A stretch of 64,000 nucleotides of DNA from an uncultured Candidatus Saccharibacteria bacterium (GTDB lineage Bacteria > Patescibacteriota > Andersenbacteria > UBA10190). The notes below the pieces were generated by a model. The model made no database searches. It was not told the origin of the DNA and worked only from the letters and a program-made list of their open reading frames with translations. The stretch spans positions 86,901 to 150,900 of the forward strand of contig CAYJKV010000003.1 of NCBI GenBank assembly GCA_964371255.1. The letters are read 5' to 3'. Made by a program: the position numbers and the translations under genes. Below, in pieces: positions 7,566 to 56,644 of this stretch. Each line of letters begins with the position of its first letter. The stretch's first letter is position 1.

Positions 7566-7645
7566 ATTCCCTCCCTGATAAGAGAGGGGTAGGGATGGGT
7601 TTTTAAACTATTGCCAATCCCAAACCCCTCCGCCTGCCGGCAGAA
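7566..7645. repeat. degenerate relic of the MITE-like element core (CCCTGATAAG hairpin plus GGGGTTTGG box plus CGCCTGCCGGCAG palindrome)
   Basis: Sequence tccctccctgataagagaggggtagggatgggttt aligns with the cores of the elements at 20601 and 22449. Confidence 0.4.
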
Positions 7646-8587: not shown

Positions 8588-10823
<2,236 letters not shown>

Positions 10824-10834
10824 CTGGTCTCTCC

Positions 10835-12367: not shown

Positions 12368-12710
12368 GGCTCATCAATTGGTTAAGTTTAGATCGAACTG
12401 AAGCGTCGATTTCGCTATCGGTGGTGCGCGCGATAAATCCTCCCAGGATGGTTGGATCCACCACCGTTTGCGCGTCCAAATTATCTACGCCCAATTTCAT
12501 TTTCATCATGGCGGTTATCCTCTCTACCAGGGATTTATCAATCGGCCGGGCAGTAATAATTTCTACCTTAGGCTGTTTTATTTTCTGGCCTGATATTTCT
12601 GCCAGTTCATTAATAACATTGGTCGCATTATCTACGCCATATTCTTTAGCATAGCGGGTCAAGATGGGCAAAAATGCTTTAGCCAATTCTCTGGCAGAGT
12701 AACGCGTCAT
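12360..12710 (-). CDS. atpH: ATP synthase delta (OSCP) subunit, short form
   Basis: Operon position. C-terminal [25 protein letters not shown] matches the delta signature. Confidence 0.75.
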
Positions 12711-13266
12711 ATTTTTGGCTGGTTCTCCACCGCTTCCAGCGCCTTGATTATTAAGGCCTGGTCGCTGGCTGTGTCTAGTTTAGTATTAATCATTTTTTCC
12801 GTGGCTTGCGCAACTAATTCCACAGTTTCGTTTTTTAGCTGATCCTTAATCTTTGCTAAGTCTTGGTTGACCTTTTCCTGCGCTTTTTCCACAATTTTCT
12901 CCGCCCTTTGCGCCGCTTTTTCCTCCGCCGTCTTAATAATATCGGTCGCCTGGGTGCGGCCCTGGCTGATGGCTTCATCAATTTTAGTTTGCGCTTTTTG
13001 CATCATTTCCTGTTGTTGTATAGTCCAGGTCTCTTTCATTGTTTCCATCTCTTTGCTCGCGCGCAGCGACTCCTCAATCCGTTGTCGTCGACTATCCAAC
13101 AGTTTCAGAATCGGTTTGTACGCCACGAAGCGCAGGATAACTAGCAGCAGCGTAAAGTTAATTACTTGGAAAAGTAATGCTTTACCGTCAAATCCCAGCG
13201 CCGCGAAGCCGGTGGGGCCTTGCTCCGCTACTGCCTCGGTAGCTGCCTGGACAGCGTTAATAAACA

Positions 13267-13267
<1 letters not shown>
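12707..13267 (-). CDS. atpF: Fo ATP synthase subunit b
   Basis: Single N-terminal TM helix followed by a long charged coiled coil. Operon position. Confidence 0.8.
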
Positions 13268-13509
<242 letters not shown>

Positions 13510-13533
13510 TTAGTTAAATAATTAAAAATTAAT

Positions 13534-14292
13534 CTAAGCTGGCTCCGCTGCTGGTGCCTCATCATGCTCCGACGTAGCTACGCCGATAAACACGAGGGTG
13601 AGCAGTGTAAAAACCAAAGCCTGGATCAAACCGACAAACACTTCCAGGAAATAGAACGGTACCGGCAACAGCAGGGGAACGAGGTACGTCATAACGACTA
13701 ACAAAACCTCACCGGCGAATATATTGCCAAATAAACGGAAGGTAAAGGAAATGACCCGCGAGACTTCAGATACTAGCTCCAGGAAACCGACAAACAACAT
13801 AATCGGATTCAGACTGACATATTTTTTAAGATGCTTAACGACCCCCAGTTCCTTGATTGCCCAAGATTGCGTCATCCCGACGGAAATAAGCGCCAGTGCT
13901 AAGGTAGTATTTAAATCAGCTGTGGCTGCCCGAAATAGCGGCACATTGCCATGGGCTGTCTGGATGTGAATAGAACCGACTCCCGGAATTAATCCCAGCC
14001 AATTGTTTATCAAAATGAAAGCAAAAAAAGTTAAGAGCAGCGGCAGTAAACTCGCCGCTTTGGCTGGACTATGCAAAATATCCTCCGTCATGCCTTGCAA
14101 CATTTCCGTGATTGATTCGACGACTTGTGCCGCGCGGCTTCTCGGCGATACGGTCAAGGCCCGGCTGGCGAGATAAAAAATAATCAGCACCACCACGCTG
14201 CCGACCAGCCCGGTCACCATTGCATTCGTCACGGTCAAAGACCCGATTGTTGTTAAACCTTCCGCCGCTAATGAAATGTGTACGTCAGCCAT
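13534..14292 (-). CDS. atpB: Fo ATP synthase subunit a
   Basis: Polytopic membrane protein with the LSLRLFGNIFAGE-like motif (FRLFGNIFAGE). Confidence 0.85.
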   Translation of the reverse strand: MADVHISLAAEGLTTIGSLTVTNAMVTGLVGSVVVLIIFYLASRALTVSPRSRAAQVVESITEMLQGMTEDILHSPAKAASLLPLLLTFFAFILINNWLGLIPGVGSIHIQTAHGNVPLFRAATADLNTTLALALISVGMTQSWAIKELGVVKHLKKYVSLNPIMLFVGFLELVSEVSRVISFTFRLFGNIFAGEVLLVVMTYLVPLLLPVPFYFLEVFVGLIQALVFTLLTLVFIGVATSEHDEAPAAEPA

Positions 14293-14704: not shown

Positions 14705-15127
14705 ATGGCGGGACATAATGTAAAAACCGTTGTTGTCTTCTGCTCCGACTTTCGTCAGAACCAACAGGTAATGGATCATTGTCAAGCAGCATATGGGGAG
14801 TTCGATACTCTATCTTTTCCGGGTGCCTGCCTGCCCTTCTTGGCCGACGATTCAAGCCAGGTAACCGGCCAGTGGCTTACTATCCTTCATAAACTGCATG
14901 GCAATCAAAAGGTAGTAATCATTGATCACCTTGATTGCGGCGCATACAAAGTAACCTACGGTCAGGACCTGGCTGGTGCTCCTCCTGAACATGAAGGTTT
15001 TTTGCACCTAAAAAATTTCGTCGCTCTTCAAGAAAAATTCGCGACCGATCCGACCCTGCGCGACTTGAAGCTAGAATTCGCTCTTTATAACATCCCTACC
15101 CAGCACCTTGAGACTGTGAAGCTATAA
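14705..15127 (+). CDS. hypothetical protein with beta-carbonic-anhydrase-like CSDxR / HxxCG motifs
   Basis: FCSDFR and IIDHLDCGAY resemble the beta-CA zinc ligand motifs. Shorter than canonical beta-CA. RBS AAGGA ahead of ATG at 14705. Confidence 0.4.
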   Translation: MAGHNVKTVVVFCSDFRQNQQVMDHCQAAYGEFDTLSFPGACLPFLADDSSQVTGQWLTILHKLHGNQKVVIIDHLDCGAYKVTYGQDLAGAPPEHEGFLHLKNFVALQEKFATDPTLRDLKLEFALYNIPTQHLETVKL

Positions 15128-15150
15128 ATTTCATCTCGAGACTGTTCGCC

Positions 15151-15177
15151 CAACCGCACCCTGCGGTTTTTTTATTA
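15151..15177 (+). terminator. Rho-independent terminator
   Basis: aaccgcaccctgcggtt hairpin followed by TTTTTTT, 25 nt after the stop of the 14705 gene. Confidence 0.7.
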
Positions 15178-15396
15178 TTTCTCCCAAATGAGTGTGGGCC
15201 CATAGGGGACCACGAATTTGGTGCGAAATAATAACCCATCCGTCTTGTGGCCCGAAGCTTTAGCGAAGGACCAAGCCCGAAGGGCGAAGGAGGGTTCGTT
15301 ACTTATGTAAATACATGATCGGCACACGAGACCTCGCCTTTTGAGCGAATTAAAAAAACCGCCGTAGCTTTCGCCGTAGCGGTGTGGACGTGCAAA

Positions 15397-16515
15397 TCAG
15401 CGAACGGCCAATGTGTCCGCCTTGTATTCAAGGTTTTTCGGGACAATCACGACTTTCTTCTCATCGCCGCGCTTCTCAATGTGTCCGCCTTGCCACGCTT
15501 TTATGCCATGGCAGTGCGCCAATTCAATCACCGTCTGAACTTGGTCTGGCGGCACATAGAGAGCGAAGCCAGCACCCATATTGAAGTTCCCATAGGCTTC
15601 TTCATCGCTGACCGGGCCGTGTCCCTGAATAAACGAGAACAGTATCTGTGGCTTCCCGGGGTTGTCGATTATGTACACGAATGGCTCCACCGCTCGCATC
15701 AGCTTCCGCCAACCATGGCCAGTGATATTGACGGTGTAGTGCAGGTCGACACAGGACAAACAGGCTTCAATCGCTTGAACGTAGATCGTCGTTGGCTGCA
15801 CCAGTGCTTCGCCGTATGTCTGCCTGCCGGAAAGAGGTGTCATGTAGCCACCAGGCAGCTTATCAGCGATGCGGCGCGCCAGCGTCAGGCCGTTAGCGTG
15901 GATGCCGGAGCTGGCGAGCAGTACGATCGCGTCACCATCCTGGATCCGAGGCATGATCAGTAGTTCTTTGGGTTTGATCATGCCAATGGCAGAGCCACTC
16001 AAGACCACGGTCTCCGACGCAATCATATCCTTCAGCGTCGGTGTTTCACCACCAGCCCAAGTGCAGCATGCCAGATCACAGCCTTCCTTCCATCCGCGCA
16101 TCAGATCACGAACGCGTCGCTCATCCGTAAACCAGTTGCCATCTCCGGCGGCCAGATGCATTGCCAATGAAATCGGCAATGCGCCGACCGTGATCATGTC
16201 GTTCACGATCGTGGCAATCGTATCGCGCGCCACATAGTCGTAATACGAGCGGCCGGTGAGCTTGTACATGGCATCAGCCACGAGATTCTTACTGCCCAAG
16301 CCTTCCTCGACATGTGCTAAGTAACAGTCCGGCATTTCGATCAGATAGGCACTTTCGCCGCGACTCCACGGCACTTCCTTGAGATCAAACTCGCGCAGGT
16401 AATGGGCAGTCTCCTGTGCTGTTTCTTGTGCCTGCCGCTTGAACGGGTCCATCAGGCTGTAGTCAACGCCAGTGCTGGCATAGGTCATTGGCTTGGTCAT
16501 GGTTTGTTGCTCCAA
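15397..16515 (-). CDS. AIR synthase-related (PurM-like) protein
   Basis: Collinear with PurM: YASTGVDY (SYKDAGVDI), EEGLGSKNL (GTDGVGTKL), NDMITVGALP (NDLVVQGAEP), WAGGETPTL (VGGETAEMP), DGDAIVLLASSGIHANGLTL ([20 protein letters not shown]). Divergent from the canonical sequence. Confidence 0.65.
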   Translation of the reverse strand: MEQQTMTKPMTYASTGVDYSLMDPFKRQAQETAQETAHYLREFDLKEVPWSRGESAYLIEMPDCYLAHVEEGLGSKNLVADAMYKLTGRSYYDYVARDTIATIVNDMITVGALPISLAMHLAAGDGNWFTDERRVRDLMRGWKEGCDLACCTWAGGETPTLKDMIASETVVLSGSAIGMIKPKELLIMPRIQDGDAIVLLASSGIHANGLTLARRIADKLPGGYMTPLSGRQTYGEALVQPTTIYVQAIEACLSCVDLHYTVNITGHGWRKLMRAVEPFVYIIDNPGKPQILFSFIQGHGPVSDEEAYGNFNMGAGFALYVPPDQVQTVIELAHCHGIKAWQGGHIEKRGDEKKVVIVPKNLEYKADTLAVR

Positions 16516-16699
16516 ATTGTGAAAGGGCTAATTTGACGCTACGAAACAATTCCGAAGCGTGCAGGGTATCATACGTTTTCGGTCCAAATATGACAATTTA
16601 CATTTGCTGAAAGCGCCTCTCGCTGGTATGACCAAATGAGGCCGCGGATCGTCCGTGAGCTATTTTCTGAACATTCCCAACTAAATATAGGGAAAAACC

Positions 16700-19600
16700 A
16701 TGATCTATCGCATGTACCGACAGATGGACAGTAGTCTGGAGCTTGGTTTCTATATCGAGACCACAAGTCAGCTGTCCCAATTGGAGCAAAGACAGCTTCT
16801 GTGGCTGGTCGCAGAAACATTCGAACCCAGCCAAACTGGAACCGAACCCCACTTGACATCACCAGATGTCGTGGAAATCGGACCAAGGATTTCAATTGAG
16901 ACTCCATTCTCGTCGAATGCCGTCTCAATCTGCCAATCCATGGGGCTGCGGCAGATTACCCGTATCGAGCGTACTCACCGCCACCTAATTTGCAATGGCC
17001 AGTCGGCGGACATCCTCCTTCAGACTCATCTTGACCTAATGACCGAGCAGCACTACCCGAACGGAATCGAGAGTTTTGACACCGGCACATTGCCTGAAGG
17101 TGTCAAAGAAATCGACCTCATGGGTCGCGGCCAAGAAGCACTCGACGATATGAACAGTGCGCTTGGTCTTGGCATGGATGCCCGGGACCTCGAGTACTAT
17201 CAATATCTTTTTACTCAGGTCCTTCACCGGAATCCGACCGATGTTGAATTGTTCCAACTGGGCAACGCCAACAGCGAGCACAGCCGGCACTGGTACTTCA
17301 AGGGCCAGATTGTCATCGATGGAACGCCCATGCCGGAGACTCTCTTTGCGATCGTTCAGCGCCCGCTGAAAAGTCTCGGCAGTGATAATCGCAGCCTCGT
17401 TGCCTTTAGGGACAACGCTGGTGTGATCAAAGGATTCGGCACGCGCTTAATCCTTCCTGTCAATCCAGGCATGCCTTCGGCAATGTGTATCTTGGCAAAG
17501 GTGGTTCATATCACCTGTACCGCGGAAACTCACAACCATCCGACTTTCGTGTCGCCATACAATGGCGCTGCCACCGGTCCGGGAGGTGAAATACGTGACG
17601 GCAGTGCCGTTGGTTGTGGAGGTATATCAGGCATCGGTGTATTTGGTCTTTTTGTTGGCAACCTCTTTATCCCCGGGTATGAAATCCCAGGAGAAATAGT
17701 GGGTTACGGCAAACCGTCCAAGTACGCCTCTCCTCTTAGAATTCTGATTGAAGGAAGCAACGGGGCTTTTGATTACGGCAACCAGATCGGCAGGGCAGTC
17801 ACTCTAGGCTTTTGCCGAACCTTCGGTCAGACAGTCGGAGGCCAGTGGCGTGAGCCACGCAAACCAATCCTCTATAGTGGTGGTGTCGGTCACTTGTTTA
17901 ACGAGCACATCATTAAAGGGACGCCTGAAGTTGGCATGCTCATCGTGCGCATTGGCGGCCCCGCTTACCCTGTCGGGGTTGGCGGAGGCTCAGCTTCAAG
18001 CATGATGCAGGGTCAGAACACCGAGGATCTCGATTTCAACTCCGTCCAGCGCGGTAACGCAGAAATGGAGAATCGGGCGAACCGGGTCATTCGAGCCTGC
18101 ATCGAAATGGGCAATCAAAATCCCATCTCAAGTATTCACGATCAAGGTGCCGGTGGGCCGAGCAATGTTCTTACGGAACTTCTTGAACCCCTCGGCGGCC
18201 AGATCAACATTCGCGGCATTGTGCTTGGCGACAAGACGATGTCCGTCCTTAAAATCTGGAGCGCTGAATTTCAAGAAGGATATGGACTCCTGATCAGGCC
18301 GGAACGGATCGAACTTTTCATGTCGGTCTGTAAACGCGAGCGTGTCAACTGCGAAGTCCTCGGTGCAATCGATGGCCGTGGAAACGTTGTCGTTGAAGAT
18401 TCTCAAAACGGGACAACACCCGTCGCACTGAACCTGGATCAGATTCTGACGAATATGCCTCAGAAAACGTTCGAGTCTACCCGAGGGACTGAAGGCCTCA
18501 AACCTTTGAACCTGCCGGATGTCACTGTCGGCGAGGCACTGCGGGCGGTGTTCAAACTTCCCAGTGTGGGTTCGAAAGGGTTCCTTGTTCACAAGGTGGA
18601 CCGAAGCGTTACTGGGCTCGTCGCGCAGCAACAATGCTGTGGCATTGCCCAGATTCCGATTGCGAATGTGAGCATTAACGCACAAAGCCATTTCGGTTTA
18701 ACCGGAGCGGCCAGTGCAGTCGGTGAACAGCCGGTGAAGATGCTCATTGATCCGCGAGCTGGAGCCAGAATGGCGGTAGCAGAAATGCTGACCAACCTGG
18801 CCTCGGCACGGATTAGTGGTATGGAAGATATTCGATGCCGTGCCAACTGGATGTGGCCTGCTAAGCTGCCTAACGAAGGCGCCCTCCTCTATGAGGCCGC
18901 AGTTGCTATGTCTGACCTCATGGTCGGGCTTGGCATTGCAGTTGATGGAGGTAAAGATAGCCTGTCAATGGCAGCGACAATTTCGGGAGAGCTCGTAAAG
19001 GCGCCTGGCAGTTTAGTGATTCTCGGGTACGCCCCCGTGCCTGACATCACGAAGAAGGTCACGCCGGATATCAAGGAGGCAGGACGAAGCGAGTTGTGGC
19101 TGATTGATCTTGGACTGGGTAAAAATCGCCTAGGCGGTTCAGCTCTAGCTCAAGCGTTCAACCAGCTCGGTGATGAGTCGCCCGATGTTGACAGCCCTAA
19201 ACTCCTCAAGAACGCGTTTCTTGCGGTGCAACAGATGATCGACGACGGGTTGATTCTGTCTCTGCATGATCGAAGCGACGGTGGTCTCATAACCGCGGTC
19301 GCAGAGATGTGTATGGCCAGTTGCTGTGGATTCAGTCTGAGCGTTCCTAACGCTGAAGAATTACTGGCTAGTTTATTTAGCGAGGAGCTCGGGTTTATTG
19401 TAGAAGTTGAACAAGGAGAAAAGATTGGTCAAATTTGTAAACTTTGCCAGTCACTCGGTGTACCGATTTACAATGTTGGCAAGACGCTGTTAAGCACTTT
19501 GTGCGAGGTACATAATGGTGCTGATCAAACATTCTGGGATAGCTCAATTACAGATCTCCGGGCGTGGTGGGAGTCTACATGTTACGAAGTCGAGAAGTTG

Positions 19601-20539
19601 CAGATGAATCCCGCGTGTGCCGAAGAAGAACATGTTGCTCGCCAGAGCCGGCTTCCCAGCATTAATGCGGCTCCATCTTATCAGCTCTCGTTTGCTCCAA
19701 TTGCAACACCTCTGGCAGTTCTGGAGGCGGACAACAAACCTCGTGTGGCGGTGCTGCGCGAGGAAGGCACGAACGGCGACCGAGAAATGCAAGCTGCCTG
19801 TGCAGCAGCCGGTTTTGCACCATGGGATGTCACTATGAGTGATCTTCTGGCAGGCAGCATCAATCTGGATATGTTCCAGGGGATCATCTTTGCTGGCGGC
19901 TTCTCCTACAAGGACGTATTCGACAGCGCTAAAGGCTGGGCCGGGACAATCCTGTTCAATGATAGGTTGAGGGAGATGTTCGACCGCTTCTACGTCCGCG
20001 AGGATATATTCTCGCTCGGCGTGTGCAACGGCTGTCAGCTGATGGCGCTACTCGGATGGGTACCGTGGCAAGGCATTGCCAGTGAGATGCAACCGAGGTT
20101 CGTTCACAACACTTCGGGTCGGTTTGAGTCCAGGTGGGTACAGGTAGAAGTTTTACCCAGCCCATCGGTGCTTCTTAACGGCCTGGAAGGATCGAAGCTC
20201 GGCATATGGGTCGCTCATGGCGAAGGCCGACTGGTTTATCCGGATCAGTCGATTGCGCAGGAGGTTTTAAAGCTTAAGCTGGCACCTCTCGTCTACCTGG
20301 ATCCATATGGTGAGCAGACGGAACTGTATCCATACAATCCGAATGGTTCGCCGCTCGGGATTACGGCTCTGTGCTCTCCAGACGGACGTCATCTTGCAAT
20401 GATGCCTCATCCAGAACGTTGTTTTCGTTGGTGGCAGTGGCCTTGGCAGCCAGCTTCATGGCAACGTCTCAACACCTCTCCATGGCTCCGGATGTTTCAG
20501 AACGCCAGGGAATGGTGCAGGGCTTACGGACTTATCTAA
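16700..20539 (+). CDS. purL: phosphoribosylformylglycinamidine synthase, large single-chain type
   Basis: 1279 aa. ETHNHPTFVSPYNGAATGPGGEIRD FGAM-synthetase core. C-terminal class-I glutamine amidotransferase (GVCNGCQLMALLGW). N-terminal repeat as in E. coli PurL. Confidence 0.9.
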   Translation: MIYRMYRQMDSSLELGFYIETTSQLSQLEQRQLLWLVAETFEPSQTGTEPHLTSPDVVEIGPRISIETPFSSNAVSICQSMGLRQITRIERTHRHLICNGQSADILLQTHLDLMTEQHYPNGIESFDTGTLPEGVKEIDLMGRGQEALDDMNSALGLGMDARDLEYYQYLFTQVLHRNPTDVELFQLGNANSEHSRHWYFKGQIVIDGTPMPETLFAIVQRPLKSLGSDNRSLVAFRDNAGVIKGFGTRLILPVNPGMPSAMCILAKVVHITCTAETHNHPTFVSPYNGAATGPGGEIRDGSAVGCGGISGIGVFGLFVGNLFIPGYEIPGEIVGYGKPSKYASPLRILIEGSNGAFDYGNQIGRAVTLGFCRTFGQTVGGQWREPRKPILYSGGVGHLFNEHIIKGTPEVGMLIVRIGGPAYPVGVGGGSASSMMQGQNTEDLDFNSVQRGNAEMENRANRVIRACIEMGNQNPISSIHDQGAGGPSNVLTELLEPLGGQINIRGIVLGDKTMSVLKIWSAEFQEGYGLLIRPERIELFMSVCKRERVNCEVLGAIDGRGNVVVEDSQNGTTPVALNLDQILTNMPQKTFESTRGTEGLKPLNLPDVTVGEALRAVFKLPSVGSKGFLVHKVDRSVTGLVAQQQCCGIAQIPIANVSINAQSHFGLTGAASAVGEQPVKMLIDPRAGARMAVAEMLTNLASARISGMEDIRCRANWMWPAKLPNEGALLYEAAVAMSDLMVGLGIAVDGGKDSLSMAATISGELVKAPGSLVILGYAPVPDITKKVTPDIKEAGRSELWLIDLGLGKNRLGGSALAQAFNQLGDESPDVDSPKLLKNAFLAVQQMIDDGLILSLHDRSDGGLITAVAEMCMASCCGFSLSVPNAEELLASLFSEELGFIVEVEQGEKIGQICKLCQSLGVPIYNVGKTLLSTLCEVHNGADQTFWDSSITDLRAWWESTCYEVEKLQMNPACAEEEHVARQSRLPSINAAPSYQLSFAPIATPLAVLEADNKPRVAVLREEGTNGDREMQAACAAAGFAPWDVTMSDLLAGSINLDMFQGIIFAGGFSYKDVFDSAKGWAGTILFNDRLREMFDRFYVREDIFSLGVCNGCQLMALLGWVPWQGIASEMQPRFVHNTSGRFESRWVQVEVLPSPSVLLNGLEGSKLGIWVAHGEGRLVYPDQSIAQEVLKLKLAPLVYLDPYGEQTELYPYNPNGSPLGITALCSPDGRHLAMMPHPERCFRWWQWPWQPASWQRLNTSPWLRMFQNAREWCRAYGLI

Positions 20540-20600
20540 AAGCCAATCCGACCTCTTACTTATGGATGTGTAAGGGGTTTTTTATTTTTTTCAGGCCCGT

Positions 20601-20760
20601 CATACCAACCGGAGTTAATTCCTGCTATATTCCACACTTATCCTTCTCCCTGCCTCGCCCCGCCGTTGGCGGGGATAAAGGGGCCTGCCTGCCGGTAGGC
20701 AGGGATTGATGGGGTTTGGTCGTCACCGGCATAGCAGACATTAAGTTCGGTTGGTATCAG
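20601..20760. mobile_element. MITE-like element copy A (about 160 bp, about 31-bp imperfect terminal inverted repeats ATACCAACCGRAGTKAATTCCTGCTATATTCC ... GGCATAGCAGACATYAARTTCGGTTGGTAT)
   Basis: Terminal inverted repeats seen directly. The GC-rich hairpin core contains the CCTGCCTGCCGGTAGGCAGG palindrome. A second copy lies at 22449. Confidence 0.7.
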
Positions 20761-20821
20761 CCGGTCTTTTCATGCAGGGAACTTTGGTTCAAACGTTATC
20801 CACCCCGCGGCCACGGTCACT

Positions 20822-20850
20822 AGACACACATTTAAAATGTGTCTATACTG
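20822..20850 (+). promoter_or_regulatory. palindromic operator-like site overlapping a TATACT -10 upstream of the YcaO gene
   Basis: agacacacattt aaaatgtgtgtct inverted repeat immediately followed by TATACT. GGAG RBS 9 nt before the YcaO ATG. Confidence 0.4.
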
Positions 20851-20922
20851 CCTATCTGGTTTTTCCTGTTCATTCGCTGTACCGACTGTGCCTTAACAAC
20901 TTTTCGTCTCGGAGAATAGATC

Positions 20923-22113
20923 ATGTTTCGCGTCAAAGTTCTTAGTAATGACCCGTCACCTCTCGCCTACAAGCCTCGTACCTATATTGTCGAAGCTCAA
21001 ACCGACCAAACTGTTGGCTATGGTTCTCATTCTGATTGCGCGACTGCCCGAGAAATTGCTATCGCTGAAGCAAGCGAACGGCAGGCTGTCTACGCTAACC
21101 TTCCCCTCAATGTTGGCCCGCTCAATGGCAGCAGTCAACGAATTGATCCCAGGACACTGATGCCGCTTTCCGTCGAGCAACTTCGTCACGTTTATTTGGA
21201 GGAATTCAATCCTGATCTGGACTATCGATGGCTGGCCGGTCATGAAGTTATGAACGGTTCGCCGGTCGAGATCATTGCGGATTGTTGTCTTTATTCTCTG
21301 CCAGATAATTGGCCCAACGGCCGTGTTGCCTGGGCGAATTCTAACGGCATGGCTGCTGGCAAGACGTATGACGACGCTGAAAAATCCGCTCTGCTCGAGT
21401 TATTCGAAAGAGACGCGCTGATGAATATCTGGATGTCACGTTTCTCGCCGCCCCAAATCGCTAACCGTCATCTGCCCGGCAAAGTCACTGCCATTCAGAA
21501 GGACTTATCCAGTACCGGCTACCAGTTTGCCACCCTTGACGCTACTTGTCGCTCTGTCCCGGTTGTGATCACATTGGCTTACCGGGACCGGCCCCCGGCA
21601 TTAGTTCTAACAGCAGCAGCGCGTTTTTCGTTGGTCGAAGCCGTTCACGCTGCCTGGCGCGAACTTGAGCGGGAAATATTTCTCCGGTTACTGTTAGCTA
21701 AGTCATCTGCTTCAACTGCTATGCCAACCAAGATACCGATCACTTGTGTCCGCAGCAGCAACGACCACGCCTCCTTTTACAGTGATCCTGAAAATTCGTC
21801 ATACGCTAGCTTTCTCTGGCAAAGCGATCCGGCCGACAACCAACCAGAGGACCGACACCAGCTTTGTGACCAACCGTCGTCAATATGGGACCTAAGAACT
21901 TGTTGCCAAAACTGCTCCATCAGTCAGCTATATTATCTCGACTATGGATTAATTAATGGCCACCATGTTATTCGTTTAATGACCCCGGATCTTGTGCCTT
22001 TGTTGTTCGGATATAATCAATTTCCCTTAGCCCATCGGGCTCGCCATACCTGTTATCTTCCATCTCTAACCCCTAACTGGAACTGCCCTGTTCCACCTCA
22101 CCCCTTGGATTGA
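20923..22113 (+). CDS. stand-alone YcaO-domain protein (cyclodehydratase-like ATP-dependent amide activator)
   Basis: VGYGSHSDCATAREIAIAEASERQAV and WANSNGMAAGKTYDDAEKSALLELFERDAL match the YcaO ATP/Mg signature. C-terminal Pro-rich end ...CPVPPHPLD (PxPxP-like). Cys-rich C-terminal segment. Confidence 0.75.
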   Translation: MFRVKVLSNDPSPLAYKPRTYIVEAQTDQTVGYGSHSDCATAREIAIAEASERQAVYANLPLNVGPLNGSSQRIDPRTLMPLSVEQLRHVYLEEFNPDLDYRWLAGHEVMNGSPVEIIADCCLYSLPDNWPNGRVAWANSNGMAAGKTYDDAEKSALLELFERDALMNIWMSRFSPPQIANRHLPGKVTAIQKDLSSTGYQFATLDATCRSVPVVITLAYRDRPPALVLTAAARFSLVEAVHAAWRELEREIFLRLLLAKSSASTAMPTKIPITCVRSSNDHASFYSDPENSSYASFLWQSDPADNQPEDRHQLCDQPSSIWDLRTCCQNCSISQLYYLDYGLINGHHVIRLMTPDLVPLLFGYNQFPLAHRARHTCYLPSLTPNWNCPVPPHPLD

Positions 22114-22192
22114 CAAAACCAACCGTGTTAGACTACTATCTCGTTAGTTGTTGTTTTCGTTTTAAGGCATTCTCAAAAATAGGAGTAAAAAG

Positions 22193-22354
22193 ATGCCTTG
22201 CTCAAGTAGTGAACTCCCACGGGAGCAGAAACGGGTTAGCCATCAGGAAATCGAGCTAGCTGCGTACTATCGGTATCTGTGGCGGAAGCGAAACGGCATT
22301 CCCGGAACCGCCCAGGAAGATTTTGAGAGAGCTGCTGCAACGCTCGCCACGTAA
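22193..22354 (+). CDS. DUF2934-like small protein (53 aa)
   Basis: AGGAG RBS. LAAYYRYLWRKRNGIPGTAQEDFERAA resembles the DUF2934 core (AYxxWxxRGxPxGxxxxDWxxAE). N-terminus MPCSSSELP. Confidence 0.5.
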   Translation: MPCSSSELPREQKRVSHQEIELAAYYRYLWRKRNGIPGTAQEDFERAAATLAT

Positions 22355-22448
22355 TGCATCCTCTTCCAACGTGCGTGCCCCCACCGCCACTCAATTACGA
22401 GTGTGCGGTTTTTTTATAAATAGGAGCCCAGCAGAAGAATATAGGTGT

Positions 22449-22565
22449 CATACCAACCGAAGTGAATTCCTGCTATATTCCACTGTCGTTCTTCCCCCTG
22501 ATAAGGGGGATTGAGGGGGTTTGGCCGTCACTGGCATAGCAGACATCAAATTCGGTTGGTATCAG
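22449..22565. mobile_element. MITE-like element copy B (about 117 bp), same TIRs as copy A
   Basis: tcataccaaccgaagtgaattcctgctatattcc ... ggcatagcagacatcaaattcggttggtatcag. Core has CCCCCTGATAAGGGGG hairpin plus GGGGTTTGG. Confidence 0.7.
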
Positions 22566-22892
22566 GTTAGGAAAATTACGTCATCAATTTTCCAATAAGG
22601 GAATGGTCTCATCCATTCCCTTGTTGTCAGTCCACCCTAACGGAACATGTTAGAACCTTACTGCAACAAATGTGCCGGGAAACCTAACTTGAGCAGGGGT
22701 ACAGCGCCTTCGCTACAGTACACCCAAATAACATGGGCAAAGCGTCCGAAGCCATATTTGACAGAGAAGCATATACATGATTAGATATTGCATCCTAGCC
22801 GGTATGCTGGGAATGTAAGTTTTGAGGCTATTTAGGTTCCGGTGCGTTACCGGGATGGGATTAGTCTCACCATAACGTAAGGAGTTCCTTTT

Positions 22893-23528
22893 ATGTCTAC
22901 TTCAAAGGGTTCGCAGTTGGCTCGTGGTGCCAGTATGGCCGCTGACGTCTGGCAGAAACTAGATCAGCGCGTGAAGGCACGCGGCGGCACCGACGAGGAC
23001 ATGTATCGCCTGGCCAACAAGGAAGGCGAGTGCATCCTCGACTTGGTCGCCGACCATCTCGTGAAGGTGGGAGCCGTTCATCGCAACCGCTACCCGGTCC
23101 AGTCCAAGCACAAGTCGCTCCAGGACGCGATTGCGGCGGGCAAGTACGACTACGTTAACGGCTACATCACCGCCGAGCATTTCAAGCTCGAGGGCGAGAT
23201 CGTCGTTGATACAAAGCTCGTGCTGTACCACCCGGATCGCGACATCGAGAGCGATGACGTGGTCAAGGAGCTGGATCAGATGGGACTGCGGCCTGCCACC
23301 TTGCAGGAGCTGTGCGCTTTCGGGGAGAAATACCCCAACATCCAGCGCGAATTCCCTTGTGTGGCTCTTGGTTCCGTCTGCGTGGTCTCGCTCGGCGACC
23401 GGAACGTCCCGTATCTCGGCTACTGGGGCGCTGGGCGCAGGCTCTACCTGAGCTGCTGGGATGATGTGTGGGGTCCGCGTTGCCGCTTCCTCGCCGCCCG
23501 CAAGCCTGCCTGTCCGGCAGGCAGGTAG
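22893..23528 (+). CDS. hypothetical protein encoded in a locally high-GC (about 60%+) segment
   Basis: RBS AAGGAG before the ATG. Strong GC3 bias distinct from flanking DNA. The antisense ORF 22959..23624 is the usual high-GC artefact. The gene ends inside the GCCTGCCTGTCCGGCAGGCAGG palindrome. Confidence 0.45.
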   Translation: MSTSKGSQLARGASMAADVWQKLDQRVKARGGTDEDMYRLANKEGECILDLVADHLVKVGAVHRNRYPVQSKHKSLQDAIAAGKYDYVNGYITAEHFKLEGEIVVDTKLVLYHPDRDIESDDVVKELDQMGLRPATLQELCAFGEKYPNIQREFPCVALGSVCVVSLGDRNVPYLGYWGAGRRLYLSCWDDVWGPRCRFLAARKPACPAGR

Positions 23529-24013
23529 CCCTTTGGTCCTTGGGCACTTGAGTCCTTTGTGCCCTTGGATCCTTTGCCTCGCAAAATCTTTTGATTTCGT
23601 GGGGCTTTTTAATTTGCGAAGCAAATTATCCCGTGTAGCCTTAGCGGAGTGGAACGCATGGGTTTTGCAATCAGGCAGTACTATATAGATACGGTGGAAT
23701 TGGAGTAAACAATGCGTGCCGCAGATTACGGCTTGCGGCGGTTATGCTCTGGGACTGGCCATGTTGCCAGAATCACGAAGGTCACGGCTTTCGTGAGCGT
23801 GCGTAAGTCAGTTCTCACATACTTTAGATACTTAGTGCAGAATACCGGGGGAATAAGTTCTTCGATAAACTCAGAGTGAAGGATCCTGAAGACTAGTACA
23901 GCCCAATGCGACTATTCGCGGGGCAGTGTTCGCGACTATTTACGACAGAAGTCTGGCGAGGGTTTCTTAGTTTATGGACTCCTTAGCTGTAAACTTGGCA
24001 CTAGGACAGCTAG

Positions 24014-24042
24014 TTGACATAAAGAGGTGAGTTAGCTAATAT
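24014..24042 (+). promoter_or_regulatory. sigma70-like promoter TTGACA-17-TAATAT
   Basis: Consensus -35 and near-consensus -10 with 17-bp spacer, about 50 nt upstream of the GTG start at 24095. Confidence 0.55.
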
Positions 24043-24094
24043 CGCTCACAGGTCATTTTGCACATTTCACCGCCAACAATATCGGAGGTTCTCA

Positions 24095-24655
24095 GTGAAG
24101 ACGCTGCCTATACACCCAAACTTTGCGCCAGAATTCGCCATTGGACAAACAGTCTGGTTCATTACCTCTGGACGAGAAGTAGAATCCGACCAAATCCGAA
24201 GCGTTTCCTTCAAATCAATGCGGTCAGACGGGCAGGAAAAATTGCTGTGCACCGGGTATCAGCTCAGTATGACGAACCCAGACGCAGTGGACGAAGAGAC
24301 TTTTTCGCCTCGTGATCTTTACAAGACAAAAGCTGTAGCGCAGCAACTTGCTGTGTGGCACTCAGTCGAAGGTATCCGTGAAGACGAGTGGCTCCAAGCT
24401 ATTGGAGACAGGGAGGAGGAAACGATTGAAGACTATGAGCTTGGCATATGTTGTACTGGCCTATCTGATGTCCGAGATCTTCTGACCCAATGCCAGCAGG
24501 ACGGCGGGCTCATTGAAAGAGATTGTCGTCGTATCACGGCGCTTCTTAAAGGCAGCGGGCACTCTGACAAACTGGACATTACCGACTGCCCAAAACCCAT
24601 ACTTATCAGGATATTTGAGCAACTTGGTGTTGTGTCTGCATCCCAAGAAACATAA
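24095..24655 (+). CDS. hypothetical protein (186 aa)
   Basis: GTG start with GGAGG RBS at -7. No recognised domain. Confidence 0.5.
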   Translation: MKTLPIHPNFAPEFAIGQTVWFITSGREVESDQIRSVSFKSMRSDGQEKLLCTGYQLSMTNPDAVDEETFSPRDLYKTKAVAQQLAVWHSVEGIREDEWLQAIGDREEETIEDYELGICCTGLSDVRDLLTQCQQDGGLIERDCRRITALLKGSGHSDKLDITDCPKPILIRIFEQLGVVSASQET

Positions 24656-24715
24656 AGTCGCTCAATCAAAACCAAATCATAGCCGCGTGAATATCCTTCA
24701 CGTGGTTTTTCTTAT

Positions 24716-24755
24716 CTTGATTCCAAGCACCCATTTGGTTAGGCAATGAAAACAG
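24716..24755. repeat. conserved non-coding box 1, copy a (TGATTCCAAGCACYCATTKGGTTAGG...)
   Basis: About 85% identical to 25333..25372. Confidence 0.5.
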
Positions 24756-24899
24756 CTCAATCCAGACTGGTAGCAAGGTAGCTCTTCGGCCCACCGCGCC
24801 AGTTGGCGGGGATGCCCCTGAGTTCTTCGAAGTACAATGAGATTTCTTTTAAGTTGGTCACTTGCGTGACCTGTTCTCGAGCCCAAAAGGTAAGAGAGT

Positions 24900-24945
24900 G
24901 TTGCCCGGCCGTCCATTGCTTTAGCGGCGAACGGGAATCAAAACC
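24900..24945. repeat. conserved non-coding box 2, copy a (TTGCCCKGCCGTCCATWGCTTTAGCGGCGAACGGGAATCAAA)
   Basis: About 90% identical to 25417..25462. Confidence 0.5.
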
Positions 24946-25093
24946 AAGAGAGGAGATAACTGTCTTTGCAAAGATTTATGATCGTTCCTTAAAGAGGATA
25001 GAAGAGTCCAAATTCTAATTCGGTTGATAATTAATGTAGTAAAAGTATAGTTTCTAAGTTGGTACCATCAATGTACTTTTCGGGAGACTCACC

Positions 25094-25276
25094 ATGGTTA
25101 GTCATGAAGGTTGGCGAAGTATTATCCGCGATGCTTGTGACTTACGAGAACTTCTATCTCATGGCGATGTTGTGAAAGGCATGAAATTTCCTATACTGGA
25201 CTCACTCACTCCACAGCGCCACGAAAAACAGGAGTCAAGGCAGTCATCGGAACGAAGAGATGTTCCCCAAGCCTAA
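25094..25276 (+). CDS. small hypothetical protein (60 aa) between the duplicated boxes
   Basis: GGGAG RBS. Followed by a canonical terminator. Confidence 0.3.
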   Translation: MVSHEGWRSIIRDACDLRELLSHGDVVKGMKFPILDSLTPQRHEKQESRQSSERRDVPQA

Positions 25277-25299
25277 TAGGGTTAACTGGACCAAGACAA

Positions 25300-25332
25300 C
25301 CGCCGCCACTTAAAAACAAGAGGCGGCTTTTT
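25300..25332 (+). terminator. Rho-independent terminator
   Basis: ccgccgcc-loop-ggcggc followed by TTTTT. Confidence 0.6.
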
Positions 25333-25372
25333 ATGATTCCAAGCACTCATTGGGTTAGGAGAATAGAAATAG
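25333..25372. repeat. conserved non-coding box 1, copy b
   Basis: See 24716. Confidence 0.5.
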
Positions 25373-25416
25373 CTGCATAAAAAAAGCAATTTTGATATCC
25401 AATAGGTTAGAGAAAA

Positions 25417-25462
25417 TTGCCCTGCCGTCCATAGCTTTAGCGGCGAACGGGAATCAAATCAA
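25417..25462. repeat. conserved non-coding box 2, copy b
   Basis: See 24900. Confidence 0.5.
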
Positions 25463-25630
25463 GGGATTTGCCGTCATTTACTAACGTTCTCTGGTTAGAC
25501 CGGATGCTGTATCACCATAAAATGATATCTTTAGTGCTTCTGCCGATAAAAAGTTTGGAACCATAAAAAATAGCTCCGGAGAGTTAGTAACCCATCGGAG
25601 CTCTTGAGGGTAATGGCGATCGGTAGCACT

Positions 25631-26353
25631 TCAACCGTGAGGAAAAAGAAATCGCGCGGCGCGCTTGGCTTCTACGAGGGTTACTTTTTCATCCGGCCCT
25701 ACCAACCGCTCACTACGAGAGAGATCGACGACACGTCCTTCACTGATCATTCCTAGCGTTTCGATCTGCACTTGATGCTCAACCGGCAGAACTCGCTGTT
25801 GAAGATCGGTTGTATCATCGTCCGGTGCAATCTCGATCGTTTGCCTGTGAATGACAGCACCCCGATCAAACTCCGGGGACACGAATTGAGCGATGGCTTC
25901 CGTCCAGTAGTCACGCTTGGTAGCTCGGACAAAGTAAAGCCGTGCTGCGTGAACGCGCTTGCCGTACATACCTTTGCCACCGAAATCGGGATACCCCGGA
26001 TCAAGTGGACCGGGATGTTGGTTGATCATCCGTCCAGAGAAGGCCTCAATAACGTTGGCCGGCGTCTTGGGCATCCAGCCATACTGGCCGATCCAATCCG
26101 CATGATATTCCCGACAGATGTTCAGGATATGATCACCGAACTCATCAGGGGAGTCGTACCATTGTGGCAGTGCCAATATTGCGTGAACACCGGCAGTCTG
26201 AACCCGTTGAATGCCTGCGGCCTTTTCATTGCTGCACAGCACACAGGCTGGTTCAACATGTTGTAAGCGGCCACTTTGACAGGCGCGTATAATCTCGAGA
26301 GCAGTTGTGCCGCCACCTGATATAAGTAGCAAAAGGCGAAGTTTGTCCGACAT
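25631..26353 (-). CDS. PurN-like formyltransferase (GAR transformylase family), divergent
   Basis: LLISGGGTTALEIIRACQSG (VLISGRGSNMEAIVRAC in PurN) and NQHPGPLDP (NIHPSLLP). C-terminal extension. Active-site region differs from canonical PurN. Confidence 0.6.
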   Translation of the reverse strand: MSDKLRLLLLISGGGTTALEIIRACQSGRLQHVEPACVLCSNEKAAGIQRVQTAGVHAILALPQWYDSPDEFGDHILNICREYHADWIGQYGWMPKTPANVIEAFSGRMINQHPGPLDPGYPDFGGKGMYGKRVHAARLYFVRATKRDYWTEAIAQFVSPEFDRGAVIHRQTIEIAPDDDTTDLQQRVLPVEHQVQIETLGMISEGRVVDLSRSERLVGPDEKVTLVEAKRAARFLFPHG

Positions 26354-26649
26354 GGTTATCTCCTTGGTTTGCGCAATGTACGGTCGTTATCGAACTAGAA
26401 CACCCAGTTCAGCGTCGTTGGAACATAGCACGGCGAAATACCCGAGGCAAAACCAAATGGTGACGAGCCGCGTGATTAGTGCTAAATTGCCTCGATGCAA
26501 CAGAGATGGATAAAGGTGCAAGTACAATCAATTTAAACCGTGCCGAATTTGCGAATTTATTTCGCAAACTGAGGCCACCTTGTGGGAAAGGAGCAGCGAA
26601 ACGAAGTGAAGCGATGAGGAAAGGGATACGTCCCTTCCCTCATTACGTG

Positions 26650-26722
26650 TCCAGCGGGTAGGAGTTGAACCTACTTAAAAGGGTTTTACAGACCCTCGCC
26701 TCAGCCGTTCGGCCACCGCTGG
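26650..26722 (-). tRNA. tRNA-Tyr (GTA), class I (5-nt variable loop), C1:G72 acceptor pair
   Basis: Manual fold: acceptor CCAGCGG/CCGCTGG, anticodon stem AGGGT/ACCCT, loop CTGTAAA, T-arm GTAGG-TTCAACT-CCTAC, variable loop TTTAA. Confidence 0.7.
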
Positions 26723-26987: not shown

Positions 26988-27059
26988 GCCACCTTAGCTC
27001 AGCGGTAGAGCAGGGCTTTTGTAAAGCTCAGGTCGTCGGTTCAAGTCCGACAGGTGGCT
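26988..27059 (+). tRNA. tRNA-Thr (TGT)
   Basis: Manual fold: acceptor GCCACCT/AGGTGGC, D-arm GCTC-AGCGGTA-GAGC, anticodon loop TTTGTAA, T-arm GTCGG-TTCAAGT-CCGAC. Confidence 0.75.
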
Positions 27060-27212
27060 CAAAGCTATTACTCAATAAACTTCTGGAGACCCAGTATATT
27101 TCAAAACTGAAACGACAGTTAGCAATAAGCTGGACAAAAATCCAGCTGTTTGTATATTATCTGTCACGTTGTTCGTTTTACTTAAGAGCCTCTAATTGAC
27201 GGAGATACTACC

Positions 27213-27720: not shown

Positions 27721-28839
27721 ATGACAGACAAAACAGCTATCATTAATCGCTTAATAAAAAATAGCGCCGAGATCATCACCGAAGATGAATTTCTCGAGCG
27801 CCTCGAGTCCGGCAATCAACTGACCCATTATATTGGATTTGAAATTTCCGGCTATGTCCATATCGGGCAGGGGATTATGGGCGCGTTGGTCATGAAAGAT
27901 TTGACGGATGTAGGTGTAAAGTGCACCGTCTGGCTGGCCGATTGGCACACCTGGATCAATGAAAAACTGGATGGGACCAAAGAAACCGCTGCGGCTATCG
28001 GTCGGGGCTATTTTACTGAAGCCATCAAAGCTGCCTACCTCGCGGTGGGCGGTAATCCAGCTGATTTAGAATTTCGTCTAGCCAGTGATTGGTACCAGCA
28101 AAATCCAATGGCATACTGGGAAACAGTGCTTGGTGTGATGAACCACACTACGGAGGCTCGTCTGATGCGAAGTATCAGTATTATGGGCCGTCAGGAGGGG
28201 AGTGAGATCGAGGGGGCTAAACTTATGTACCCGGCCATGCAAGTTGCTGATATATTTTTTCAAAAGGTAGATATCGCGCACGCCGGTATGGATCAACGCA
28301 AGGCCCACGTTGTTATGCGGGATGTCGCACCTAAAGTATATCCAGACCAACCTAAACCCATCGCTCTGCACCACCCATTATTGATCGGTCTTAAAAAACC
28401 AGCAACGTGGCCAATACCCGTCGGTACCGCCCAAAAAGATGTCATTATAGAAATGAAGATGAGTAAATCGGATCCTAATTCTGCCATCTGGGTTCATGAC
28501 ACGCCGGATGAAATTTCTAAAAAAGTTAATCAGGCATTTTGCCCCGAAAAGGAAATAGATTTTAACCCCATTCTCAATTGGATCGGCCATATCCTCTGGT
28601 GGGATCGGCAGACACCTTTTCGTATCGAGCGTAAGCCGGAACATGGCGGGGGAGTGGAATACGCTTCTTATGAGGCATTAGAACAAGCCTACGCTGCCGG
28701 TGATATTCATCCCATGGATTTAAAAGCCGCCGTTGCCAAAGAGCTAATTACTTTATTGGAACCGGCGCGTGCCCATTTCGCTAAGCCGGACGTAGCTGCC
28801 AAAAAATCCGAACTCGACAACCTCCTGCAAAAAAAGTAA
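27721..28839 (+). CDS. tyrS: tyrosyl-tRNA synthetase, archaeal/eukaryal type (no S4 domain)
   Basis: Collinear with the M. jannaschii TyrRS signature regions: SAEIITEDEF, HYIGFEISGYVHIGQ (YIGFEPSGKIHLGH), KMSKSDPNSAIWVHDTPDEI (KMSSSKGNFIAVDDSPEEI), HPMDLKAAVAKELITLLEP (HPMDLKNAVAEELIKILEP). Confidence 0.85.
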   Translation: MTDKTAIINRLIKNSAEIITEDEFLERLESGNQLTHYIGFEISGYVHIGQGIMGALVMKDLTDVGVKCTVWLADWHTWINEKLDGTKETAAAIGRGYFTEAIKAAYLAVGGNPADLEFRLASDWYQQNPMAYWETVLGVMNHTTEARLMRSISIMGRQEGSEIEGAKLMYPAMQVADIFFQKVDIAHAGMDQRKAHVVMRDVAPKVYPDQPKPIALHHPLLIGLKKPATWPIPVGTAQKDVIIEMKMSKSDPNSAIWVHDTPDEISKKVNQAFCPEKEIDFNPILNWIGHILWWDRQTPFRIERKPEHGGGVEYASYEALEQAYAAGDIHPMDLKAAVAKELITLLEPARAHFAKPDVAAKKSELDNLLQKK

Positions 28840-56630: not shown

Positions 56631-56644
56631 TGTGTTACAAACAA

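Follow-up and report, generated by a model that had tools for sequence, protein, structure and literature searches.

In a 64,000-nucleotide stretch of contig CAYJKV010000003.1 (here referred to as the window), an 11-kb segment at about 15,130 to 26,400 carries genes for a PurM-like protein, a large single-chain PurL, a PurN-like protein, and a standalone YcaO protein. We conclude, with a probability of roughly 70%, that this segment is a mosaic made up of ordinary purM, purL, and purN genes (steps 5, 4, and 3 of purine synthesis), an independent cassette of YcaO and a short peptide gene, and orphan open reading frames (ORFs) and non-coding repeats. A first-pass annotation made from the letters alone had described an island of three consecutive ATP-dependent, amide-activating enzymes with an orphan YcaO. 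The genes that it listed, the terminator near 15150, and the tRNA pair were all found, as was the lack of any other pur gene in the window. However, the three pur genes do not follow directly on one another. PurM (367 amino acids as called; 15397 to 16500, minus strand, with the raw ORF running to 16515) and PurL (16700 to 20539, plus strand) are divergently transcribed neighbors, and PurN (240 amino acids; 25631 to 26353, minus strand) lies on the strand opposite to PurL and 5 kb away from it, with YcaO, the gene for the peptide, a pair of orphan ORFs, and ∼2 kb of non-coding DNA that contains repeats lying in between. Nor are all three enzymes ATP-dependent amide activators, given that PurN is a folate-dependent transferase, and YcaO has a conserved partner ORF.

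The reaction sequence of these three families is well established. In the window, PurN would formylate glycinamide ribonucleotide (GAR) to formylglycinamide ribonucleotide (FGAR) with 10-formyl-tetrahydrofolate, PurL would convert FGAR to formylglycinamidine ribonucleotide (FGAM) with glutamine and ATP, and PurM would use ATP to close the imidazole ring, giving aminoimidazole ribonucleotide (AIR). We infer these enzymatic roles from what is established for the families.

PurL is, on sequence grounds, a canonical large FGAM synthase. It scores 1451.6 bits against TIGR01735 (cutoff, 1123.05), covers profile positions 29 to 1306 of 1307, and has all five Pfam domains, namely, the N-terminal domain, the linker, the duplicated PurM-like synthetase core, and the C-terminal glutaminase. 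Visible in its translation are GVCNGCQ and MMPHPER, which we take to be the motifs of the glutaminase Cys/His/Glu triad. The nearest relatives, at 47 to 83% identity, come from metagenome-assembled genomes (MAGs) of Patescibacteria, and there the gene keeps purine company: a PurC-PurE fusion, PurB, and PurL stand in a row in locus L033, PurD-PurN-PurL in L032, and PurB near PurL in L024. The PurC-PurE fusion of L033, a Staskawiczbacteria MAG, is a 496-amino-acid protein encoded at 6692 to 8182, directly upstream of PurB and PurL. In an Uhrbacteria MAG (L035), the large PurL reads as two adjacent ORFs (10001 to 11749 and 11755 to 13827; 582 and 690 amino acids), which could reflect a frameshift, an error in sequencing, or a gene that is truly split. 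An apparent 155-nucleotide insertion in the PurL of L002 and L006 (about 9417 to 9531, at the 3′ end of the gene) was rejected as an artifact: it is a scaffold gap of 100 Ns with duplicated flanks, and it made gene callers miss the gene.

The PurM-like and PurN-like proteins are divergent, as had been stated, and both fall below their NCBIfam equivalog cutoffs. They represent large, divergent subfamilies specific to Patescibacteria. Each nevertheless matches its namesake, PurM or PurN, along the full length and much better than it matches any other family. The PurN-like protein (PF00551, Formyl_trans_N) scores 84.5 bits against TIGR00639 (cutoff, 150.1); its best solved relatives are all PurN (E values of 1e-17 to 4e-8), and its N-Q-H, D-x-G, and E-H elements align with the PurN structures 3auf, 3av3, and 3tqr. 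We take the catalytic residues of PurN to be Asn106, His108, and Asp144 (Escherichia coli numbering). Among 120 family members, the Asn-x-His, the Asp, and the C-terminal Glu-His are at least 95% conserved. The altered NQHPGPLDP motif singled out in the first-pass annotation is indeed present in place of NIHPSLLP, and it is a family-specific change, as are GTN to GTT and an insertion of ∼20 residues. All PurN-like homologs with names are Patescibacteria. PurN adjoins PurL in four loci of other species, including L035, is directly followed by PurD in its closest relative (L095, 83% identity), and sits beside PurM, PurSL, and PurQ in L096.

The PurM-like protein (AIRS and AIRS_C domains) scores 189.5 bits against TIGR00878, below the 236.35 cutoff, and spans profile positions 1 to 331 of 332. 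The runner-up family, ThiL, reaches 31.7 bits, and the best solved structures are PurM (E value, 6e-39). Homologs with names belong to Andersen-, Uhr-, and Falkowbacteria. In canonical AIR synthetase, the predicted ATP, Mg, and FGAM ligands (Cryptococcus neoformans numbering) are Asp48, Gly49, Val50, Asp77, Asp90, Tyr91, Gly123, Glu124, Ser174, Asn175, and His231 (PMC8449271); residue numbering was verified against the 1cli/9jzw sequence (E. coli structure). Gly49, Asp77, Gly123, Glu124, and Asn175 are retained, together with the D-x4-G-A-x-P motif and GGET. The other ligands are replaced, invariantly or nearly so, across 120 family members: Asp48 by Glu, Val50 by Leu, Asp90 by Met, Tyr91 by His, Ser174 by Ala, and His231 by Asn (110 of 120). 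Furthermore, ITGHG replaces ITGGG in the family, which adds a new His. For every lost carboxylate or imidazole ligand, there is a new His at a distance of 1 to 2 residues. We read this pattern as an active site that has probably been rebuilt rather than one that is dead. Whether catalytic residues are kept, a question raised in the first-pass annotation, thus has a divided answer: PurN keeps all of those tested, and PurM has ligand replacements. A PurM variant spread across a whole lineage amounts to an experiment by nature on the active site of PurM, and it shows the reason for which the purine pathway is under-called by curated models in Patescibacteria genomes.

Three points tell against assigning these genes to ordinary purine synthesis by a full pathway. 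The PurM replacements leave identical chemistry as an assumption. No further pur gene, be it purF, purD, purE/purK, purC, purB, or purH, occurs in the whole 64-kb window. Finally, according to a 2026 preprint, de novo nucleotide synthesis is lacking in 93% of Patescibacteria genomes, which makes the purine pathway a minority trait in the group. A purine role nonetheless remains the best reading of PurM despite the ligand swaps because of the evidence from gene neighborhoods. In other species, PurM and PurL stand side by side at six loci. PurM has PurL and/or PurN as a neighbor in the window itself as well as in L014, L015, L017, L018, L019, L025, and L096, the last of which has the order PurM / PurN-PurS/L-PurQ.

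The same neighborhoods bear on the idea, put forward in the first-pass annotation, that PurN-like, PurL, PurM-like, and YcaO form one pathway that makes an amidine or imidazole on a non-purine substrate. The proximity of the enzymes within 11 kb fits that idea, as do the subthreshold scores of the PurM-like and PurN-like proteins and the altered PurM ligands. However, relatives carry these PurM and PurN families in clusters with purD, purB, purC-purE, and purS/purQ; YcaO homologs have no pur neighbors, no pur locus of another species that we examined contains a YcaO, and the YcaO of the window has its own peptide partner and a nucleotide signature unlike that of the pur genes. We regard a joint pathway as extremely improbable, and the amidine/imidazole pathway that was proposed as new comes down to ordinary purine genes.

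Another possibility is that the genes form a partial pathway, or “salvage patch,” of steps 3 to 5 only, perhaps with purD, in which GAR or another intermediate is imported from a host or AIR is made for some other purpose. The lack of other pur genes in 64 kb agrees with this, as does the report that most Patescibacteria do not have de novo synthesis; in Andersenbacteria and Uhrbacteria relatives, moreover, PurM stands alone among housekeeping genes. Against it, pur genes are scattered in Patescibacteria genomes, and relatives with the same families have purD, purB, purC-purE, and purQ/purS adjacent. We know of no transporter for phosphorylated intermediates, which also counts against a partial pathway. 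Complete de novo synthesis of inosine monophosphate (IMP) was reported for 32% of 399 MAGs of the Candidate Phyla Radiation (CPR) (PMC11608272), so that about a third reach IMP. Overall, we consider a partial pathway decidedly unlikely. The non-coding stretch of the segment holds no pseudogene remnants of purD, purB, or purC-purE.

Compared with the purN, large purL, and purM of E. coli and Salmonella, the genes of the window belong to the same families and have the same domain architectures, PurL passes the equivalog cutoff, PurN keeps the catalytic Asn/His/Asp, and the genes of relatives cluster with other pur genes. They differ in that PurM and PurN fall below the curated cutoffs, PurM has invariant replacements at five canonical ligand positions and ITGHG for ITGGG, PurN has NQHPGPLDP and the ∼20-amino-acid insertion, and the genes are scattered and interrupted and form no operon.

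The first-pass annotation had called the composition of the segment slightly different from that of core genes; the difference is real and larger than that. Tetranucleotide correlation of 5-kb intervals with the rest of the window is 0.56 to 0.69 across 14 to 27 kb versus 0.79 to 0.89 elsewhere, and the dinucleotide distance of PurL is 121 versus 36 ± 10 (maximum, 69.5) for intervals of the same size elsewhere. A TA-poor, CA-rich signature is common to PurM, all three thirds of PurL, PurN, orf186, orf211, and orf142 and is lacking in YcaO. When the expected deviation of each gene was simulated on the basis of the protein that it encodes and the codon usage of the host, the observed value exceeded expectation by 7.2 standard deviations (SD) for PurL, 5.9 for PurM, 3.8 for orf211, 2.9 for orf186, 2.1 for PurN, and −0.1 for YcaO, with eight control genes within ±2.2. 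Amino acid content combined with host codon usage was therefore rejected as the cause for PurL, PurM, and orf211 and accepted for YcaO. Of the Leu codons, 6% are TTA in PurL plus PurM versus 25% in other genes. Expression-linked codon bias explains the composition just partly: the preference for C-ending codons is common to S2, EF-Ts, and atpD, but the avoidance of TTA is not.

This offset extends beyond the window. In 21 of 22 Patescibacteria-type loci (L007 to L035 and L093 to L096), the pur genes are GC-richer (by 0 to 15 points) and TA-poorer than their flanks, the exception being L031, where they are slightly lower in GC. Dinucleotide distances between pur genes and flanks are 54 to 186 in these loci, in contrast to 24 to 32, with no offset, in Nitrospirota and Bacteroidota controls. 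This suggests that the purine genes of Patescibacteria form a circulating pool with a composition of its own.

Transfer was distinguished from gene-specific selection by setting the identity at 4-fold degenerate sites against a within-codon-family permutation. For PurL versus L013, identity at these sites is 0.60 where 0.29 is expected (z = 16.8), and z is 7 to 13 versus L014, L015, L019, L021, and L032; the signal survives a permutation stratified by the following base (z = 5.5 to 14). Backbone genes are saturated (z ≤ 1.8) in every comparison made: atpD and atpA versus L007; EF-Ts, S2, RF1, and TyrRS versus L093; atpD, at 84% amino acid identity, versus L021; and MraW, an FtsI-like penicillin-binding protein, a Mur ligase, and RmuC (29 to 34%) versus L019. 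The atpD of L021 and the dcw genes of L019 are on contigs that also carry the unsaturated PurLs. RF1 matches in L032 and L097 (38 to 42% identity) are perhaps RF2 paralogs and were excluded as divergence calibrators. The PurM genes beside those PurLs are likewise saturated and just 60% identical to PurM of the window. Identity to the window is 78% for PurL, 60% for PurM, and 33% for PurN in L015 and 67% for PurM, 57% for PurN, and 26% for PurL (a split type) in L096, so the histories of the three genes disagree. The large PurL clade has apparently been exchanged laterally among distant Patescibacteria, and such exchange would account for the foreign nucleotide signature of PurL. We infer, rather than observe, the direction and timing of the pur transfers. 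Mobility of purL would provide a concrete mechanism for the patchy distribution of de novo purine synthesis in Patescibacteria and a way to date transfers.

Two considerations temper this picture. Gene-specific selection on codons could contribute to the offset between pur genes and flanks, and, after stratification, the synonymous-site signal of PurM, ProCA2, and PurN is weak (z = 1.8 to 4.0), which gives no more than a hint of lateral exchange for those genes. ProCA2 versus L007 is unsaturated at 4-fold sites, with a z of 4.8, or 2.3 with the context control.

Horizontal acquisition, as proposed in the first-pass annotation, therefore stands in one part, the strong PurL signal of lateral exchange, and fails in the other, an island bounded by tRNAs. 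That the whole 11-kb segment is a single recent genomic island at the tRNA pair might be thought from the tetranucleotide and dinucleotide deviation across 14 to 27 kb, the tRNAs at one edge, and the presence of repeats and orphan ORFs. However, both edges are syntenic in relatives: the order PurN-tRNA-Tyr-TyrRS-...-sigma-MurB is kept in L093, and the order PurM-ProCA2-atp operon is kept in the Andersenbacteria relatives L007 to L009. Because of this synteny, we do not consider the tRNAs to be an integration boundary. YcaO, in the middle of the segment, is compositionally host-like; PurL, PurM, and PurN have different closest relatives; and we found no att-like duplication of a tRNA end, no integrase or transposase among the scanned window ORFs of at least 150 amino acids, and, among relatives, no empty site in which ProCA2 directly adjoins tRNA-Tyr with direct repeats at the junction. 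A single island is thus very unlikely. A foreign signature within preserved synteny is more in keeping with replacement by recombination than with the insertion of an island.

The second component of the mosaic is the cassette of YcaO (396 amino acids; 20923 to 22113, plus strand) and a gene for a 53-amino-acid peptide (22193 to 22354, plus strand). Promoter-like sites precede both YcaO and the peptide gene, and a terminator-like hairpin with a T run (22388 to 22413, plus strand) follows the cassette. YcaO scores 116.7 bits against PF02624 (cutoff, 25.7), 116.9 bits against TIGR03604 (SagD; below the 219.25 cutoff), and 41 bits against TIGR03266, the TfuA-dependent thioamide type (cutoff, 365). 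Its clade is tiny. An exhaustive HMMER search of 1.84 billion representative proteins yielded 14 representatives at E values of ≤1e-30, a word-indexed search of 5.8 billion proteins gave five matches, two of them weak, and a metagenome scan found a single close locus, a copy of L099. All clade members looked up are singletons or near-singletons, and they come in two forms, one of ∼400 amino acids and one of ∼620 amino acids with an N-terminal extension. The ExxER and ELxERD motifs are kept: E49, E52, and the stretch E162-R163-D164 do not vary within the clade, and conservation of R53 and E159 is at least 90%. Also invariant is a C-terminal Pro-His-Pro, which resembles the proline-rich C terminus of cyclodehydratases. 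A structure model (predicted local distance difference test [pLDDT], 82; predicted TM-score [pTM], 0.86) matches LynD, MusD, the Methanocaldococcus jannaschii and Methanopyrus kandleri YcaO proteins, McbD, and E. coli YcaO with a Foldseek probability of 1.00. TM-scores on the query are 0.65 to 0.69 to LynD and MusD, and identity to solved structures is 15 to 19%.

Next to YcaO in six of six distinct close-homolog loci with adjacent sequence, there is a short same-strand ORF that starts M-[PA]-[CA]-S-x-[ST] and carries an upstream ribosome-binding site of the GGAG or GGAA type; across 1.59 Mb of unrelated loci, just 8 ORFs fit the pattern. In the window, the peptide starts MPCSSSELP...; its counterparts start MPCSASEIP... 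(L098/L099), MPCSASQTS... (L180), MPCSYSDST... (L182), and MPASFTSGP... (L097), and L181 has one downstream (MPASYTETP...) and one upstream (MACSGSQSP...). Differences between the peptide genes of the window and L098 are distributed 17/11/33 over the three codon positions, as expected of a translated gene. Past the first 6 to 9 residues, the peptides diverge into two with a DUF2934-like helix (18.3 to 21.5 bits; cutoff, 22), as in the C-terminal half of the window peptide, three with a Lys/Arg-rich tail, and one with an acidic tail. None of the partner peptides matches a known precursor family.

YcaO and this peptide look like a minimal pair of the kind that makes peptides that are produced on ribosomes and modified after translation (RiPPs), independent of the pur genes, with the peptide as candidate substrate. 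Across all pur loci examined, YcaO, the 53-amino-acid ORF, and the two orphan ORFs occur in contigs of the same species only, and no pur gene, protease, exporter, or other tailoring gene is conserved near YcaO homologs. Directly downstream of the next-closest standalone YcaOs (25 to 28% identity; L102 to L106, groundwater and sediment metagenomes) lie genes for classical precursors (L102, 1705 to 1863; L103, 7243 to 7344; L104, 2670 to 2828; L105, 2579 to 2749; L106, 3128 to 3298), which have a C-terminal core rich in Cys/Ser/Gly and a conserved leader, e.g., MKxLxIxVTERRLxDE. Their presence supports the view that small YcaOs act on an adjoining peptide. Those pairs resemble the cassette in having a standalone YcaO of ∼370 to 400 amino acids with a short peptide gene directly after it and differ in the leader-plus-core layout of the peptide, as well as in the low identity of the enzymes to the YcaO of the window.

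Judging from conservation and neighborhood, YcaO probably modifies the 53-amino-acid peptide. After removal of Met1, it would use ATP to phosphorylate the backbone amide before Cys3 or Ser4 of Pro2-Cys3-Ser4, the side chain would then attack the activated amide to give an azoline or a related modification, and the peptide tail would serve as a binding handle like the bottromycin follower. Several observations sit poorly with this scheme. Position 3 is Ala rather than Cys in the peptides of three loci, among them L097 and L181 (downstream peptide), and no E1-like, Ocin-ThiF, TfuA, or dehydrogenase domain is fused to YcaO or found among the called neighbors in the window, L097, L098, and L181. 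A thioamide, an amidine, or the modification of a small cellular protein may be what the pair produces.

The last of these alternatives deserves separate weight. YcaO enzymes also modify ribosomal protein S12 or McrA, and the partner here may be a small cellular protein, DUF2934-like or basic and nucleic acid binding, that is modified at its N terminus, or merely a co-regulated small gene. The C-terminal halves look less like a typical core than like a DUF2934 helix or a tail rich in Lys/Arg, and the surroundings hold no conserved protease, transporter, or other tailoring gene. However, conservation across the clade is confined to the first six residues, an indication that these are the key site, and the closest other standalone YcaOs adjoin classical precursor genes. 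We think a cellular partner somewhat unlikely, if a serious competitor to the RiPP-like pair.

Two known types of system help to place that pair. Bottromycin synthesis uses standalone YcaOs (BotC/BotCD) and a precursor whose core is N-terminal and whose follower is C-terminal (PMC8442711). The window similarly has a YcaO with no E1-like or Ocin-ThiF domain, and the conserved Cys/Ser part of its peptide is at the extreme N terminus, followed by a longer variable tail; it differs in having one YcaO and none of the bottromycin tailoring genes, and its PCSxS motif is unrelated. To our knowledge, the N-terminal-core topology is otherwise essentially limited to bottromycin among known systems. The YcaOs of thiazole/oxazole-modified microcins (TOMMs), cyanobactins, and microcin B17 (LynD, TruD, MusD, McbD, and SagD) include the best structural matches, share ExxER and ELxERD, and have an adjacent precursor gene, but the window lacks the E1-like domain, the dehydrogenase, the precursor with a leader and a Cys/Ser-rich core, the protease, and the exporter. 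As a tentative proposal, which we rate at somewhat less than even odds, YcaO and the M-[PA]-[CA]-S-x-[ST] peptide may constitute an undescribed minimal two-gene modification class in ultrasmall bacteria, with modified N-terminal residues and the variable remainder as follower, and the Patescibacteria PurM may be an AIR synthetase whose metal/ATP site has been rebuilt. If so, this rare pair would be a very small modification system in organisms whose secondary metabolism is thought to be almost nil.

Repeats bracket the cassette. A hairpin repeat resembling a miniature inverted-repeat transposable element (MITE) is present upstream of YcaO as copy A (20599 to 20760; 27-nucleotide inverted ends; folding energy, −75.9 kcal/mol; z = −4.5) and downstream of the peptide gene as copy B (22447 to 22565; internally 43 nucleotides shorter; −49.2 kcal/mol; z = −3.6). 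Direct repeats of 20 and 28 nucleotides (89 to 90% identical) bracket the cassette in L097 (7966 to 7985 and 9470 to 9489) and L181 (1011 to 1038 and 3276 to 3303); they are unrelated in sequence to the 119- to 162-nucleotide hairpin repeats of the window. Bracketing repeats of this kind hint at mobility of the cassette and are no proof of it. A viral origin was rejected: the YcaO clade, the CPR-type PurM, orf211, and orf186 have no relatives in IMG/VR, and there were no PHROG matches.

The third component comprises orphan ORFs and non-coding repeats. The GC-rich ORF of the first-pass annotation was recovered as orf211 (211 amino acids; 22893 to 23528, plus strand), with a GC content of 59 to 62% and a GC fraction at third codon positions (GC3) of 0.78 in a genome of 48% GC. 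Its GC content lies 8.2 SD above the expectation from its protein and host codon usage, and its pattern of GC by codon position fits a real gene. It is probably foreign; we found no Pfam, NCBIfam, or PHROG match, no phage, plasmid, or viral-contig relative, and no homolog in the collections searched. The second orphan, orf186 (186 amino acids; 24095 to 24655, plus strand), has the pur-like nucleotide signature, and it gave no family match in Pfam, NCBIfam, or PHROG and no relative in IMG/VR.

The duplicated non-coding boxes also proved real. Besides the hairpin copies, a non-coding block occurs as copy 1 (24711 to 24942, plus strand; core, 24883 to 24942) and copy 2 (25327 to 25458, plus strand; core, 25399 to 25458), the latter ∼170 nucleotides beyond the PurN stop. 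The conserved core of ∼60 to 70 nucleotides, with the consensus ...CCAAAAGGTAAGAG...GCCGTCCATAGCTTTAGCGACGGATGGGAACCAAA..., is repeated in intergenic spacers and appears at ∼80% identity in spacers of the Andersenbacteria loci L007 to L009 (L009, 8423 to 8495, 6366 to 6430, and 4881 to 4921, with equivalents in L007 and L008), where its copies flank PurM and ProCA2. A structured RNA was rejected as an explanation for the core, which had no Rfam match and no covariation or compensatory pairs. An intergenic repeat of ∼70 nucleotides (77% identity, internal dyad symmetry) is found at 15169 to 15237, just after the terminator and between ProCA2 and PurM, and again at 62004 to 62074.

The host is an Andersenbacteria-like Patescibacteria (CPR) genome. 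The window holds ribosomal protein genes, RF1/PrmC, EF-Ts, and an F-type atp operon, in addition to dcw/mur genes, sortases, and a pilin. Named top homologs of PurM-like, PurN-like, and PurL are from Candidatus Andersen-, Uhr-, Falkow-, Lipton-, Doudna-, Taylor-, and Staskawiczbacteria or the “Patescibacteria group.” Near-identical copies of the locus are present in 23 contigs of independent ENA assemblies, so the locus is not an assembly chimera. A small ProCA2-like gene (14705 to 15127, plus strand), which separates the atp operon from PurM, has a weak match to PF20393, and its product is 79% identical to the L007 copy; a terminator-like hairpin followed by a T run (15152 to 15168, plus strand) lies 3′ of it.

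An Rfam search of 14 to 28 kb for known RNAs and riboswitches returned just the two tRNAs, tRNA-Tyr(GTA) (26649 to 26722, minus strand) and tRNA-Thr(TGT) (26988 to 27060, plus strand), and a subthreshold RT-7 match after orf211 (23766 to 23825; 30.7 bits; gathering score, 116.8; E value, 4e-4) that is probably due to chance. Elsewhere in the window, local direct and inverted repeats surround a tRNA-Glu and a pilin-like gene (54711 to 55338 and 56593 to 56869). The tyrosyl-tRNA synthetase beyond the tRNA pair (27721 to 28839) is of the archaeal/eukaryotic type, scoring 369.6 bits against NF006330 (PRK08560) versus 83.7 bits against the bacterial tyrS model.

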